64,000 bases of DNA from Eledone cirrhosa. Its lineage: Eukaryota. The DNA lies in NCBI GenBank assembly GCA_964016885.1, contig OZ024746.1, positions 63,302,001-63,366,000 on the forward strand, read 5' to 3'. The position numbers and the translations under genes are program-made. The notes under the pieces were generated by a model. That model was given only the letters and a program-made list of their open reading frames with translations. It did not search any database and had not been told where the DNA came from. This document shows, one piece after another, positions 3,801 to 37,915 of this stretch (position 1 is the stretch's first letter; each line of letters starts with the position of its first letter).

Positions 3801-4382
3801 TCTGGGAGGTCAGTATCCCCATTTGATCTGTAAAATCCTGTCCATCCTCTGCTATCAGAGAAAACAGACTTTAAATGAAGTGGATCATAATGATAATTCT
3901 CAAACATTGATAAAAATCCAAACTAAGGTGTCATTGTTGGTAACTCAATATATACTATTGACTAAGTTGTAATGGGAAATTATGTATTAGGAGAGAAAAA
4001 TATTTGTGTTTCCAAGCTGTTGTAGCCATAAAACAAAAGTATGTTAATGTGTGACTAAGTTTCTCTAAATATTTTTAGATTTTACTAGTTTTATATAATA
4101 TTTGCTCCCACCATTGGTAAATATATATTTCTGTTACTTTGGTGGTAATGATTATAACAATAGTTATAAGAAAAGAATAACATAATAGATTAATTGTTGC
4201 AAGGGGCCCTTTTTTTTTTGTCTTTTGTTGTTTTTTACCAGGTAAATATTACATCATTTCCACATAAACTGGGTTTGACTCATAAATTTTTTTTTTTTTC
4301 CTGTAGACTATCGGTTTAATACCCTCAATAATTCATTATTACTATGGCGCCACTTAGAAGTAGAGGCATGGAAAAAGATGAT

Positions 4383-6410
<2,028 letters not shown>

Positions 6411-9341
6411 TTGGAATAAATGCTCTGAAATAGCGATATATATGTGAATATAGACATAGAATATTCGAAAATATTCTGTATGTTTATAATAAACATTTTG
6501 AAGACCTAATCGCTATAGAATAGAATGCGTCACGTATTACAATTAGATTCTCGATAAAAGCAAGGGAAGTAATCTACGCGTTTCATTCTTGTTAGAAATC
6601 ATCAGGACTACATATCCAGTGCTTTTATCGAGAATGACACAGCTAGAGACTTATAGAATACTTAGCTGTGTACAGGAACTGGTTTGAAAGAGCGGTTGCC
6701 GGTCCGGCAGAAATTAGAAATTGGAATAAATGCTCTGAAATAGCGATATATATGTGAATATAGACATAGAATATTCGAAAATATTCTGTATGTTTATAAT
6801 AAACATTTTGAAGACCTAATCGCTATAGAATAGAATACGTCACGTATTACAATTAGATTCTCGATAAAAGCAAGGGAAGTAATCTACGCGTTTCATTCTT
6901 GTTAGAAATCATCAGGACTACATATCCAGTGCTTTTATCGAGAATGACACAGCTAGAGACTTATAGAATACTTAGCTGTGTACAGGAACTGGTTTGAAAG
7001 AGCGGTTGCCGGTCCGGCAGAAATTAGAAATTGGAATAAATGCTCTGAAATAGCGATATATATGTGAATATAGACATAGAATATTCGAAAATATTCTGTA
7101 TGTTTATAATAAACATTTTGAAGACCTAATCGCTATAGAATAGAATACGTCACGTATTACAATTAGATTCTCGATAAAAGCAAGGGAAGTAATCTACGCG
7201 TTTCATTCTTGTTAGAAATCATCAGGACTACATATCCAGTGCTTTTATCGAGAATGACACAGCTAGAGACTTATAGAATACTTAGCTGTGTACAGGAACT
7301 GGTTTGAAAGAGCGGTTGCCGGTCCGGCAGAAATTAGAAATTGGAATAAATGCTCTGAAATAGCGATATATATGTGAATATAGACATAGAATATTCGAAA
7401 ATATTCTGTATGTTTATAATAAACATTTTGAAGACCTAATCGCTATAGAATAGAATACGTCACGTATTACAATTAGATTCTCGATAAAAGCAAGGGAAGT
7501 AATCTACGCGTTTCATTCTTGTTAGAAATCATCAGGACTACATATCCAGTGCTTTTATCGAGAATGACACAGCTAGAGACTTATAGAATACTTAGCTGTG
7601 TACAGGAACTGGTTTGAAAGAGCGGTTGCCGGTCCGGCAGAAATTAGAAATTGGAATAAATGCTCTGAAATAGCGATATATATGTGAATATAGACATAGA
7701 ATATTCGAAAATATTCTGTATGTTTATAATAAACATTTTGAAGACCTAATCGCTATAGAATAGAATACGTCACGTATTACAATTAGATTCTCGATAAAAG
7801 CAAGGGAAGTAATCTACGCGTTTCATTCTTGTTAGAAATCATCAGGACTACATATCCAGTGCTTTTATCGAGAATGACACAGCTAGAGACTTATAGAATA
7901 CTTAGCTGTGTACAGGAACTGGTTTGAAAGAGCGGTTGCCGGTCCGGCAGAAATTAGAAATTGGAATAAATGCTCTGAAATAGCGATATATATGTGAATA
8001 TAGACATAGAATATTCGAAAATATTCTGTATGTTTATAATAAACATTTTGAAGACCTAATCGCTATAGAATAGAATACGTCACGTATTACAATTAGATTC
8101 TCGATAAAAGCAAGGGAAGTAATCTACGCGTTTCATTCTTGTTAGAAATCATCAGGACTACATATCCAGTGCTTTTATCGAGAATGACACAGCTAGAGAC
8201 TTATAGAATACTTAGCTGTGTACAGAACTGGTTTGAAAGAGCGGTTGCCGGTCCGGCAGAAATTAGAAATTGGAATAAATGCTCTGAATAGCGATATATA
8301 TGTGAATATAGACATAGAATATTCGAAAATATTCTGTATGTTTATAATAAACATTTTGAAGACCTAATCGCTATAGAATAGAATACGTCACGTATTACAA
8401 TTAGATTCTCTCGATAAAAGCAAGGGAAGTAATCTACGCGTTTCATTCTTGTTAGAAATCATCAGGACTACATATCCAGTGCTTTTATCGAGAATGACAC
8501 AGCTAGAGACTTATAGAATACTTAGCTGTGTACAGGAACTGGTTTGAAAGAGCGGTTGCCGGTCCGGCAGAAATTAGAAATTGGAATAAATGCTCTGAAA
8601 TAGCGATATATATGTGAATATAGACATAGAATATTCGAAAATATTCTGTATGTTTATAATAAACATTTTGAAGACCTAATCGCTATAGAATAGAATACGT
8701 CACGTATTACAATTAGATTCTCGATAAAAGCAAGGGAAGTAATCTACGCGTTTCATTCTTGTTAGAAATCATCAGGACTACATATCCAGTGCTTTTATCG
8801 AGAATGACACAGCTAGAGACTTATAGAATACTTAGCTGTGTACAGGAACTGGTTTGAAAGAGCGGTTGCCGGTCCGGCAGAAATTAGAAATTGGAATAAA
8901 TGCTCTGAAATAGCGATATATATGTGAATATAGACATAGAATATTCGAAAATATTCTGTATGTTTATAATAAACATTTTGAAGACCTAATCGCTATAGAA
9001 TAGAATACGTCACGTATTACAATTAGATTCTCGATAAAAGCAAGGGAAGTAATCTACGCGTTTCATTCTTGTTAGAAATCATCAGGACTACATATCCAGT
9101 GCTTTTATCGAGAATGACACAGCTAGAGACTTATAGAATACTTAGCTGTGTACAGGAACTGGTTTGAAAGAGCGGTTGCCGGTCCGGCAGAAATTAGAAA
9201 TTGGAATAAATGCTCTGAAATAGCGATATATATGTGAATATAGACATAGAATATTCGAAAATATTCCGTATGTTTATAATAAACATTTTGAAGACCTAAT
9301 CGCTATAGAATAGAATACGTCACGTATTACAATTAGATTCT
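6411..9341 (-). mobile_element. Retrozyme-like tandem array: 9 complete + 1 partial copies of a 310-bp hammerhead-containing unit (ribozyme sense on - strand)
   Basis: TTGGAATAAATGCTCTG recurs at 6411, 6721, 7031, 7341, 7651, 7961, 8270, 8581, 8891 and 9201, with only a handful of differences between copies. Each full unit reads GTAGTC-CTGATGA-TTTCTAACAAGAAT-GAAAC-GC-GTA-GATTAC on the - strand. No ORF. Confidence 0.88.
6547..6635 (-). ncRNA. Type I hammerhead ribozyme, copy 1 of 9 on the - strand (repeats every ~310 bp to ~9115)
   Basis: Core CUGAUGA (6605-6599); GAAA; GUA triplet (6577-6575); stem I GUAGUC/GAUUAC extended by a perfect 16-bp inverted repeat (6547-6562 / 6620-6635); stem II UUCU/AGAA; palindromic stem III ACGCGU. 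Confidence 0.85.
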
Positions 9342-9532
9342 ATAGCGATTAGGTCTTCAAAATGTTTATTATAAACATACAGAATATTTTCGAATATTCT
9401 ATGTCTATATTCACATATATATCGCTATTTCAGAGCATTTATTCCAATTTCTAATTTCTGCCGGACCGGCAACCGCTCTTTCAAACCAGTTCCTGTACAC
9501 AGCTAAGTATTCTATAAGTCTCTAGCTGTGTC

Positions 9533-9621
9533 ATTCTCGATAAAAACACTGGATATGTAGTCCTGATGATTTCTAACAAGAATGAAACGCGTAGATTACT
9601 TCCCTTGCTTTTATCGAGAAT
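9533..9621 (+). ncRNA. Type I hammerhead ribozyme (+ strand copy 1), predicted cleavage after 9593
   Basis: GTAGTC(9557-9562) CTGATGA(9563-9569) TTTCTAACAAGAAT GAAACGC GTA(9591-9593) GATTAC(9594-9599). Confidence 0.85.
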
Positions 9622-9842
9622 CTAATTGTAATACGTGACGTATTCTATTCTATAGCGATTAGGTCTTCAAAATGTTTATTATAAACATACAGAATATTTT
9701 CGAATATTCTATGTCTATATTCACATATATATCGCTATTTCAGAGCATTTATTCCAATTTCTAATTTCTGCCGGACCGGCAACCGCTCTTTCAAACCAGT
9801 TCCTGTACACAGCTAAGTATTCTATAAGTCTCTAGCTGTGTC

Positions 9843-9931
9843 ATTCTCGATAAAAGCACTGGATATGTAGTCCTGATGATTTCTAACAAGAATGAAACGC
9901 GTAGATTACTTCCCTTGCTTTTATCGAGAAT
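9843..9931 (+). ncRNA. Type I hammerhead ribozyme (+ strand copy 2), predicted cleavage after 9903
   Basis: Identical core 310 nt downstream of copy 1: CTGATGA 9873-9879, GTA 9901-9903. Confidence 0.85.
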
Positions 9932-10033
9932 CTAATTGTAATACGTGACGTATTCTATTCTATAGCGATTAGGTCTTCAAAATGTTTATTATAAACATAC
10001 AGAATATTTTCGAATATTCTATGTCTATATTCA

Positions 10034-10285
10034 TATATATATATATATATATATTTATTTATATATATATATATTTATTTATATATATATTTATTTATAT
10101 ATATATATATTTATATATATATATATTTATTTATATATATATTTATTTATATATATATATATTTATATATATATATATTTATATATATATATATATATGT
10201 TTATATTTATATATATATATTTATATATTTATATATATATATTTTTATATTTATATATATATATTTATATTTATATATATATATT

Positions 10286-10350
<65 letters not shown>

Positions 10351-10695
10351 TTATATATATATATATTTATATATTTATATATATATATTTATATATATAT
10401 ATTTATATATATATATTTATATATATATATTTATATATATATATTTATATATATATATATTTATATTTATATATTTATATTTATATATTTATATATATAT
10501 ATTTATATATATATATTTATATATATATATTTATATATTTATATATATATATATATATTTATATATTTATATATATATATTTATATTTATATATTTATAT
10601 ATATATATTTATATATATATATTTATATATATATTTATATATATTTATATATTTATATATATATACTTATATATTTATATATATATATTTATATT

Positions 10696-10782
<87 letters not shown>

Positions 10783-10810
10783 TATATTTATATATATTAT
10801 ATATATATAT
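10034..10810. repeat. (TA)n/(TTTATA)n tract, right flank of the array
   Basis: Same composition and same T-excess polarity as the left tract. Confidence 0.97.
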
Positions 10811-12593: not shown

Positions 12594-12762
12594 TGGTAGA
12601 GGGTCGGACGCCTTGCTTTGACGCATAGTTACGGCCCTTGCAATTCTGAGTTCAAATCCCGCCGAGGTTAACTTTGCCTTTCATCCTTACGGGGTCGATA
12701 AAATAAAGTACCAGTAATGCACTGGGTAATTGCTGGCCTTGTGCCAAAAGTAGAAAATTATT
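12594..12762 (+). mobile_element. SINE family A (tRNA-derived head, Sauria/Meta-like central motif)
   Basis: B-box-like GAGTTCAAATCCC followed by GCCTTTCATCCTTACGGGGTCGATAAAATAAAGTACCAG and an (ATT)n tail. At least 9 near-identical copies in the window. Confidence 0.85.
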
Positions 12763-13296: not shown

Positions 13297-13421
13297 ACTT
13301 GAAAGCTGACATAGACCATCTCTGGAAATGGCTCCAAGGTGTTGAAAATCGTCTTTTACCATTGTGTATACGAAGTAGTTGGTCCACACCTGAGCTGGAA
13401 GAAAAATTGACTGAGCATCAG
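13297..13421 (+). CDS. Internal coding exon of a spectrin-repeat protein (klarsicht/AKAP6/nesprin-like): (D)LKADIDHLWKWLQGVENRLLPLCIRSSWSTPELEEKLTEHQ
   Basis: T-rich acceptor TTCCAG|, donor CAG|GTATGT, phase 1 in and phase 0 out. The peptide has the spectrin-repeat helix A pattern (LxxWLxxxExxL) and joins in frame to exon 37688. Confidence 0.88.
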
Positions 13422-13853: not shown

Positions 13854-13954
13854 ATAATTGTTTCTACTTTAGGCACAAGGCCAGCAATTACTCAGTGCAT
13901 TACTGGTACTTTATTTTATCGACCCCGTAAGGATGAAAGGCAAAATCAACCTTG
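13854..13954 (-). mobile_element. SINE family A, 3' part
   Basis: Reverse complement of the family A body and tail. Confidence 0.8.
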
Positions 13955-15637: not shown

Positions 15638-15753
15638 ATAATTGTTTCTACTTTTGGCACAAGGCCAGCAATTAGCCAGTACATTACTGGTACTTTATTT
15701 TATCGACCCCGTAAGGATGAAAGGCAACGTTAACCTCGGCGGGATTTGAACTC
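15638..15753 (-). mobile_element. SINE family A, 3' part
   Basis: Match to family A. A short flanking duplication, AATGATAGTTCCAATAAT, lies on both sides. Confidence 0.8.
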
Positions 15754-18700
15754 AATGATAGTTCCAATAATGTTATGATTTTAATCATCATCATCATTTT
15801 ATGTCTACTTTCCATACTGGCATGGGTTGGATGGGTTGTCAAAGTACAAGAGTAGACAGGTCAGCAGGCCCAGGTCTTGCTCATGCATTCCAATTTTGGC
15901 ATGATTTCTACAGCTGGGTACCCTTCCTAATGCCAACCATTTTACAAAATGTAGTGGGGTGCATTATATCATGGAACTGGTAGTACCACTTAGAGTATAC
16001 TGAGTGTATTTTATCATGGCACCAACACTAGGGAAGCTGTTGTGTTAATGGACTGAGTTTTATTAAGGGTGGAAAAATAACTAGTGATATCCCATCTCCT
16101 TCTCAGGTGCTCCTTCATTAATTTACCCAATAATAAGTATAGTAATTATCATTTCTAACTTTGGCAGAATCCATACAATTTCAGGTAAAGTTTATTTAAT
16201 TAAATAAATCCCCAGGTGAGACCAGCTGAGCTCATAGATATTATCCACTAGATATGATGGTTAGTTGCAATATAAGTGGGCTCCTACCGGACAAATAAGC
16301 AACCCTGAACCAACAGCAGTAAACTACTTGGGGAGGTGGAGCAATGGGTGACACTGTTAGCTCCCAAGAAAACTCTCACAGCCCAGTGAAAAACTTATTT
16401 TATTAAACTCCTCCATATGGTTGATTATTTTCTAAATTAATTAAAACACATAGGCAGTGTATTTCATTAAAATTATTATAATGTATGGGCTGGCATACAA
16501 AATTAGTAATTGTGGAATTTGAACTGTGAGCAAGGTGATATGGTAAATTATATACTACGTGTCATTTTTCAAGTATTGTTTACCCAGGACTTTATTTATT
16601 GCTCAATGCGCCCTACCTTTAAACCGATAGTGTGTGATACAAGGAAGCTGTGGCAACTATTTATATAACACTATAAGTAACCAACCTACATTGTTGATAT
16701 GACATGATATATATCTCCTTCAAGTAGAGTAAAATTGCCTTGTCTAAATAAACAGCTGTTGATTTTCAGATTTTCAACAAAAGTTAATTATAGAAGCACC
16801 TTTTAGTTGGAGAGTAAAGATACTTATATAGATGGGTACCAGATTATAATACTCCCAAAGGACATGATTCACGTTTTTTTAATTATTGCTGAAGGATAAA
16901 GTAAAAGTCCTTTTCTTCTCTCTTACTTTATATGGGTGGTTTGTTTTGTTTTTTGTGGTGTGTGGTTTTTTTGCATTTGTACTCAGTGACCTCTATTACT
17001 CTTTCTATTTTGAGAATTTATTTAAATCAATTCTATATTGAAGCAAATGTGCATTAGAAAAAAAATTTAAATGTAAATAGGTAATGCTAAGCTCTTAATT
17101 AACTTTTAATTTACACAATTAAGTTTATCCCTCGCCCACTCTAAATTTTTTTAATCTTTTATTTCAACATTATTTAATATCTTATTGTACACATTAATTA
17201 CTTCTGGTTATGTCATGCTTATTCTTTGTTGATGTCATAATCTCCCTTATACTAACTGGTTTATATTTTAGGTAATCTTCATTAATTCATCCCTTCTTTC
17301 GTGTGTGAGTGTGTGTATTTTTTGTTTTATTGTGACCCAATATATTTTGTTGAGCATTTTAGATTTTTTTTTTTTTCTTAAACTGAGCAATTAGGCAGTA
17401 TATTTCGTTAGAAATATAATAATCCAAGACTTAAAAACAACTATTGAGAAATGAAATACGTAACTTATTTTCCCTGCATACTAACTCAACACTTCTATTA
17501 CCATAATTCTAATAAAAAAAAAAACACTGCCTGTGATTTTGAAAATAATAAAGAATTTGGACAAATTTAGTAATATAAGTAACTTCCTTATTAACTTAGT
17601 GATTGGTGTATATCAGAACAAAGGTCAGACGATTTTATATCATAGAATCCTAGGGGTCATTTCAAGTAAATTGGTATCAAAAAGCTTAACTATATTGTTT
17701 TTCATGTGGGTGGCATCTCTGAGATTTTTATTCTCTTGACAACTCTATTTTTCTATGCCAACCAAAGCACAATAACTACTTTGATTTTGCTTTGCTGATG
17801 AGGTAAGAATAAGACCAGAACACACATGAAGTTGTCTTTCTTACTTGCCTGTAAAAACGAAACTGTAGTTATTGATTAATATATTATTTCTAGCTAGGTT
17901 TTTAATGCTATCTGCATTAACACTGCTAAAGCTAACTTAACTATTGTTTTTCATGAGAGTAGTATCTCTGAATAATTTATTCTATTGATCAGTTTTGTTC
18001 ATCTGAATTCCAGAAACTTGTATACTACATTGTGTATTATCAATTGTGAGATTTGTAGTGAAATTACTATTTTTGATAATTGTTCTTGTAGTAAATTATA
18101 TATAAATTTTGATAATGTAACTGACTACAAAAGGGTATCTATCTTTGGCACAGTGCCACAAAAGTCCCAAATTTGTAGTGATGAAATAACTGAGTTTGGC
18201 AGTTGAAATTGAAACATTATATATATATATATATATATAATAATTAAGGATGATTTGTTAAGCCTTCATTAAGCCAAATTGACCCTCATTGAGCCTAAGT
18301 TCACAATGAGGTTAAATAGATATTCATCTGCATAAATATTTGTTCATATATGCATGCACACACACACACCCACACACAAATTATATCTTTGGATTATGTA
18401 ATCATCTTAATATCAGATATATAATAACTGATCTGGTATGTAATAATTATTATTCTGTGATAATTTGATATTTGAAAATAACACGATCCCTACTTATGAA
18501 AGTATTAGCTTATAAAATATAATCACTATCATTTTTACCTTCTAAGTATTTAATAGTTGACAGTGGTAATATATTCAAGCCATAAGCAACTTTACAAGAC
18601 ACTTGATGCTAAGTCAAAGTAGTTATTAGATGTTGGTACTTGCTTGTAGATTTAGCACACCAACAATTCAAATGCATGTGGCATATACAAAACTGGTTTT

Positions 18701-37687: not shown

Positions 37688-37915
37688 ATATTGCAAAAGG
37701 ACATAGAATCCCACTTGAGAGTGGTTTCAGCAGTTCTTAAGCTTGGTGAATGCCTTCAAAATGGAACAAACGAAGACCAGCTATGTGAAGAATCTATCAC
37801 TTTTCCAGAGTCACTCAATGATGTCAGCCACAATCTGGAGAAAAGATGGCATACAATTTGGTTACAGTCACTTGAGTGGCAGTGTCGTTTAGAACAAGCA
37901 ATCATCTCTAAGAAG
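37688..37915 (+). CDS. Internal coding exon, spectrin-repeat protein (klarsicht/AKAP6/nesprin-like): ILQKDIESHLRVVSAVLKLGECL...NLEKRWHTIWLQSLEWQCRLEQAIISKK
   Basis: Acceptor TTTCTCTTCAG|, donor AAG|GTATGT, 228 nt, phase 0/0. Spectrin-repeat helices B and C (LQxDIExH...LExRWxxIxxxxxEWQxRLE). Continues exon 13297-13421 in frame. Confidence 0.92.

Follow-up and report, generated by a model that had tools for sequence, protein, structure and literature searches.

A young, two-armed hammerhead retrozyme insertion in an intron of the octopus Eledone cirrhosa, with an arm layout predicted to mask its sense ribozymes

The window analysed here is a 64,000-nt stretch of the Eledone cirrhosa genome (assembly GCA_964016885.1, contig OZ024746.1, positions 63,302,001–63,366,000 of the forward strand), and all coordinates below refer to it unless another source is named. 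At 6410–10033, between two (TA)n-rich tracts to which no strand applies, lies an array of a 310-nt repeat arranged as two divergent arms. The long arm (6410–9341, minus strand) comprises 9.46 units with nine hammerheads and has its 3′ end at unit position 165, whereas the short arm (9337–10033, plus strand) comprises 2.25 units and has its 3′ end at unit position 130. The arms overlap by 5 nt (ATTCT, 9337–9341), and the inversion junction (9312–9341) consists of this microhomology and the 25-nt loop of an inverted repeat (8615–9311 and 9337–10033) that extends for 697 bp with two mismatches. A 35-nt tail at 6410–6444 (minus strand, unit positions 131–165) is present at the long-arm end only and constitutes a Penelope-like signature. 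The left microsatellite (4381–6409) is also the insertion target, and in a search for a target-site duplication we found (TA)n on both flanks, the right one at 10034–10810. Compared with the unit at 9594–9903, the array shows three substitutions and three small indels in 3.6 kb, the indels all falling in one unit, which marks it as very young and nearly undiverged. A core-pattern search (CTGATGA-N14-GAAACGCGTA) recovered nine matches on the minus strand, with cut positions from 9055 to 6575 at a spacing of 310, and two on the plus strand (9563–9593 and 9873–9903; predicted cuts after 9593 and 9903), confirming the nine antisense and two sense hammerheads, the latter 310 nt apart, that an earlier note had described.

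Using tblastn with three homologues, we mapped coding exons of a host gene on the plus strand at window positions −45815, −30005, −17616 to −17416, 13297–13421 and 37688–37915. Three of these five exons precede the window, the nearest ending about 17.4 kb before it; the fourth (13297–13421, plus strand) lies 3′ of the array, and the next (37688–37915, plus strand) encodes part of a spectrin-repeat protein; its matches are spectrin-repeat proteins of about 1,400 aa, one of them from Argonauta at 86% identity, in keeping with an octopod host. The gene is presumably klarsicht-like, and a Pfam search of the two exons within the window, each taken singly, gave no match. The exon ending near −17415 and exon 13297–13421 have compatible splice phases and join in frame. 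The exon map thus supports an intronic placement of the array: the spectrin-repeat gene runs on the plus strand, and the intron measures ~30.7 kb, with its acceptor 3.4 kb past the array; the earlier note had proposed plus-strand host exons with the array in the upstream intron and had called for the upstream exon to be located, and both the orientation and the missing exon are borne out by these homologue-mapped positions.

Of the host exons, a 1,490-nt contig from sequencing run X20 covers only 13297–13421 and continues in a way compatible with the start of the following exon, so that the host gene appears to be expressed and spliced, with the upstream junction lying beyond the contig, and the run itself appears, from this spliced contig, to be RNA. 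Run X20 contains 0.76 of the unit's words, and none of the sequencing runs matching the unit is recorded as RNA. Run X2 lacks coverage of the host exon. The X20 contig reaches no further upstream than the 5′ edge of exon 13297–13421, as it might if the main isoform started downstream of the array; alternatively, early polyadenylation within the antisense arm could keep the polymerase from the sense arm, since the plus strand of that arm carries 20 AATAAA hexamers (a density of 6.8 per kb, compared with 0.7 and 2.4 in intron sequence flanking it). We regard a sense arm that is seldom reached or irrelevant, by either route, as very unlikely, because homologous proteins connect the upstream exons to exon 13297–13421 and the end of a contig is not equivalent to a transcript start. 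AATAAA is also frequent in AT-rich introns and requires further elements to direct polyadenylation. Separately, the exon at 13297–13421 is flanked by inverted copies of a short dispersed repeat (12647–12756 with 13861–13952 and 15645–15754; 92–110 nt, 96–97% complementary), which on sequence grounds are a possible substrate for editing or back-splicing of this exon.

The two sense motifs occupy 9537–9617 (plus strand; core 9563–9593, GUA triplet, predicted cut after 9593) and 9847–9927 (plus strand; core 9873–9903, predicted cut after 9903), the first bearing a G>A change at 9546 that weakens distal stem I. Folding of the hammerhead region gave a z-score of −4.65, and the motif has the CUGANGA, GAAA and NUH elements and the helices I and II of a type I hammerhead: a 6-bp helix I, a 4-bp helix II above a U-U pair, and a GUA cleavage triplet. 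Helix III is a single pair closed by a palindromic CGCG loop; a stable helix III is absent from a single copy and is predicted to pair only across two copies. The G10.1–C11.1 pair is likewise absent, with U-U at these positions, or A-U in 65 of 299 units. An Rfam search returned nothing at the gathering threshold, the nearest model being HH9 (19.2 bits, E 0.021; cut-off 52). Across the same 299 units from 40 loci, which were chosen without the ribozyme pattern (units within one array not being independent), the core is nearly invariant: only two catalytic changes occurred, one at A6 and one at A15.1, and common variants were confined to N7, position 10.1, loop II and helix I, the last with wobble or standard pairs. 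Such invariance suggests that the ribozyme is probably functional somewhere.

Natural hammerheads with such helix III and 10.1/11.1 features are on record, and for two axolotl motifs, each with one of the two features, monomer cleavage reached 6% and 22% after one hour (main text of PMC7229834). Hammerheads of this build are described, in the portions of PMC4209133 and PMC7229834 consulted, as weak alone and active as dimers. The octopus motif resembles the newt and axolotl satellite double hammerheads of these two sources in its one-pair helix III, its palindromic loop and the predicted need for a second copy; it differs from them in the additional U-U at the base of helix II, and it is known here from sequence. 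For the sense region folded by itself, the lowest computed energy belongs to the double hammerhead (−104.0 kcal/mol, against −88.2 for two single folds). The sense ribozymes are thus best modelled as weak, dimer-type motifs, the two copies together forming one predicted dimeric ribozyme that would be complete only ~590 nt past the junction.

Genome-wide, the core of the 310-nt unit yielded 4,584 exact matches against none for a reversed control pattern, which shows that the core pattern is not due to chance. The unit is dispersed and multicopy, and it occurs in tandem, within the 170–400-nt size range, with a type I hammerhead in each unit and no LTR, as defines non-LTR retrozymes. Of the first ten arrays retrieved by the core pattern, eight were two-armed, one was single and one was interrupted by a gap; locus L033, interrupted by a gap, was excluded from arm counts. 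Arm ends in (TA)n are concentrated at unit position 165 (1,051 exact matches in the genome) and at positions 130/139 (1,255 exact matches). In the first 218 Mb of contig C1, containing 81 and 100 such ends, all 53 divergent end pairs join a 165-end to a 130-end, and 14 of 20 ends lacking an exact partner turned out to belong to two-armed arrays as well. All 42 mapped two-armed arrays, 20 of which were selected as paired and which overlap with the 53 pairs, are minus-then-plus and heterotypic, with the 35-nt tail on one end only. Across these 42 arrays the two arm types do not differ in length (p 0.63), the median length of the shorter arm is 772 bp, and junction positions vary from array to array. 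Inversion is therefore the usual insertion form of this retrozyme family rather than a peculiarity of the locus.

The near-identity of the arms, together with the fact that no read was seen spanning this particular junction, would fit a sequencing or assembly fold-back artefact. We consider this exceedingly improbable, because the two sides continue into different flanks, the end positions are stereotyped and consistently heterotypic while the junctions differ between arrays, and contigs from run X2 contain (TA)n loose ends at unit position 139.

Several arrays depart from the simple layout. In the 19-unit arm of L035+L036 (G000:C1:43587906-43593778), two variants each recur at an interval of seven units (7 and 14; 6 and 13), which may reflect duplication of a 7-unit block or a multimeric template; L051 (G000:C1:1239726-1244451) contains the inversion junction twice over; and in L037 (G000:C1 near 45281600-45281870) about 270 nt of unrelated filler separates the arms. 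A related hammerhead repeat family, about 69–82% alike to the unit, occurs at L188:2438-2871, L231:9063-9232 and L217:331-723, the L188 copy being minus-then-plus two-armed too, with a longer tail end in (TA)n. Very short two-armed (TA)n insertions (L233:3130-3330 and 9640-9840; L226:7805-8010; L222:979-1150) fold back at a hammerhead-like core, with one arm ~70 nt longer. The unit was also found in sequencing runs under 17 organism labels, for which cross-contamination is a simple reading; in runs X1 and X3, under other organism labels, it forms one 340-nt circular contig each at a depth of 10–12, which may reflect contamination or a circle. The Hi-C run X24 contained no reads with the unit in 1,938 million letters.

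In tandem non-coding units of 170–400 nt, one type I hammerhead per unit, a GC content below 50% and thousands of copies, the family matches the metazoan non-LTR retrozymes (main text of PMC7229834; bioRxiv 10.64898/2026.07.22.740005, as far as consulted). In contrast to those elements, which these texts describe head-to-tail only, most arrays here have two arms that diverge, each with its 3′ end fixed at a different unit position; the words ‘inverted’ and ‘octopus’ each occur zero times in the main text of PMC7229834.

Inverted 5′-truncated copies, a tail of 30–40 bp often at one end and (TA)n targets are, by contrast, documented for Penelope-like elements in the consulted part of PMC8557442, and both an inverted 5′-truncated copy and a 35-nt tail at one end are found at the present locus. 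According to the part of PMC11167929 consulted, a purified enzyme nicks both strands of the target and extends them, starting at two internal sites whose positions define the tail. By analogy, the array is likely a young non-LTR retrozyme insertion made by Penelope-type machinery. Reverse transcription would start from both ends of the cut target DNA on a single RNA template, probably a circular monomer, on which two fixed start sites would set the arm ends at ~165 and ~130–139. At least seven arrays have a private variant, absent from the other sampled arrays, that recurs on both arms in all units covering its position. Copying of the two arms from a single circular monomer would produce this pattern; a donor array of uniform units may be an alternative source of such variants. 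The likeness to Penelope-like elements in the same two sources further includes a hammerhead in the repeat, whereas the 310-nt repeat differs from them in lacking an ORF, in its many units per arm and in its array-private variants across arms. In the in vitro work of PMC11167929, moreover, the start site was not seen to differ between the strands, unlike the different sites in every pair examined here.

Open frames combining RT and GIY-YIG, of 844 and 938 aa, exist in the genome. Among 50 GIY-YIG loci examined (150 matches scored), none proved to be an autonomous partner with the unit as its terminal repeat, and the examined loci contained only related short retrozymes inserted nearby. Frames over GIY-YIG matches include L217:4809-7622 (minus strand, 938 aa), L218:2688-5219 (plus strand, 844 aa) and L219:1875-5162 (plus strand, 1,096 aa), with RT matches in the L217 and L218 frames; at L222 and L232, frames lie on both strands in an inverted layout.

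Because the arms diverge 5′-to-5′, a polymerase entering from either side transcribes an antisense arm first and a sense arm second, whatever the direction of the gene. In the host pre-mRNA, the long arm (6410–9341) is antisense and comes first, and the short arm (9337–10033) is sense and comes second. Considering the 42 arrays in both directions, at least one sense ribozyme was present in 80 of 84 cases and two or more in 65, and a colinear fold-back covers all sense ribozymes in 51, leaving at least one free in 33 and two or more in 26. Any intronic copy thus by default carries hammerheads in sense orientation, the odds of full masking are about 60:40, and in this geometric model the relative arm length would decide which ribozymes are masked and which are free. 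At the present locus, the same geometry exposes none of the two ribozymes on the plus-strand transcript and seven of nine on the minus-strand transcript.

At 2,932 nt, the antisense arm read first exceeds the sense arm (697 nt) in length, and a 697-bp RNA fold-back (8615–10033, plus strand) spanning both sense ribozymes is accordingly predicted to bury them. In this fold-back, 695 of 697 bases pair colinearly, 80 of the 81 bases of one ribozyme and all 81 of the other pair with the antisense, and its folding energy is −1228.7 kcal/mol against −372.2 for separate arms, a gap of ~856. Stepwise equilibrium folding at 37 °C, a model with proteins and kinetics outside its scope, yielded cross-junction pairing from position 9350, within ~14 nt of the junction; when more upstream sequence was included, strictly colinear pairs were first scored at 9450. 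In both stepwise folds, pairing sets in before the first cut site, which lies 257 nt past the junction. Zipping onto the antisense would hence begin well before the first cut site, and well before the full double hammerhead (~590 nt), came into existence. The resulting duplex would, judging from known biology, be hyper-edited by ADAR, catalytic adenosines included, Dicer processing being possible as well, and the intron would mostly be spliced out with little effect on the host mRNA. As a long (predicted) duplex from a young repeat, it resembles the ADAR-edited inverted-repeat dsRNA of PMC9989829, the consulted part of which identifies young repeats as the main A-to-I targets of ADAR across animals, octopus being among the species studied.

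We therefore favour, with a probability of roughly 0.7, the reading that this is a young two-armed insertion in which host transcription folds the sense arm back and masks its ribozymes as a by-product of insertion geometry. The fold-back into ~700 bp of dsRNA that the earlier note envisaged was thus recovered as a 697-bp duplex favoured over cleavage, on computational grounds. Its other proposal, the co-transcriptional release of a unit-length monomer (9594–9903, plus strand, exactly 310 nt as the predicted product of double cleavage), is structurally feasible for the sense arm alone and would require the fold-back to be blocked.

That proposal corresponds to a rival in which the two sense ribozymes pair up in the nascent transcript as a double hammerhead, cleave the intron at both sites, free the 310-nt monomer as a circle precursor and lower host expression. 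The hammerhead core is conserved, the double hammerhead is 15.8 kcal/mol better than two monomeric folds, and cleavage would be available were zipping blocked. There is also precedent for intronic ribozymes affecting their hosts: in the consulted text of PMC11856399, an engineered intronic hammerhead reduced zebrafish mRNA by up to 20-fold, and in that of PMC10919898 the intronic Cpeb3 ribozyme influences splicing. An exposed strong intronic hammerhead can thus lower expression, so that masking could matter. The octopus array shares with Cpeb3 a sense ribozyme in an intron; Cpeb3, however, is a single ribozyme with a shown role in the text consulted, whereas here a putative ribozyme and its perfect antisense lie in one young insertion. 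We judge cutting of the intron unlikely, given that the fold-back is the far more stable structure and nucleates ~250 nt ahead of the first cut site, that the dimeric ribozyme requires the second copy (to ~9927) and that comparable motifs cleave weakly; the minus-strand transcript, with most of its ribozymes exposed, would be the better monomer source.

Masking might instead have been selected, with intronic insertions surviving when the second-read arm is the shorter and the hairpins feeding small RNAs that silence the family. This locus, with both ribozymes covered, fits such a scenario, the divergent geometry always supplies the antisense shield first, and Xenopus genes are reported to be depleted of retrozymes (bioRxiv 10.64898/2026.07.22.740005, in the part consulted). 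Selection nevertheless seems improbable to us: geometry alone already masks fully in 51 of 84 cases, so that one fitting locus is close to a coin toss, and the array has barely diverged. An arm-order test over 10 kb on each side of 48 loci, excluding seven single-arm arrays, relied on T-over-A skew to stand in for gene direction. Around the host gene, 15 of 16 blocks show a positive skew, yet the proxy failed its own control, as the left and right flanks of the 42 arrays disagree (rho −0.08). The outcome obtained with this failed proxy, a longer first arm in 7 of 20 (rho −0.15, p 0.33), gives no evidence either way on selection. A broader proposal, which we hold to be doubtful, treats the 5′-to-5′ geometry as a safety catch: the shield made before the ribozymes would let the element colonise introns, selection would favour short second arms, more than 1,000 perfect hairpins (shorter arm median ~770 bp) would form a major ADAR/Dicer substrate restraining the family, and copies with long second arms would serve as RNA-circle sources.

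Returning to the by-product reading, the description of the locus as a ‘built-in self-silencing arrangement’ in the earlier note was too strong, since inversion is the usual form, 33 of 84 cases are left unmasked and the insertion is almost undiverged. The layout is probably not a switch built for the host gene but a by-product of repeat insertion, and its effect on this gene is likely small. Our literature search, with subscription papers and supplements largely outside it, found neither a description of a retrozyme from octopus nor any account of inverted retrozyme arrays being masked by fold-back, and the antisense-first consequence predicted here from sequence for intronic arrays appears to be without a description in the literature found. 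The finding offers a testable rule: two-armed retrozyme insertions always give antisense-then-sense RNA, and the ratio of arm lengths sets the masking. This rule bears on how ribozyme-bearing repeats are tolerated in genes, on which copies make RNA circles and on the origin of long perfect dsRNA in a heavily editing animal.
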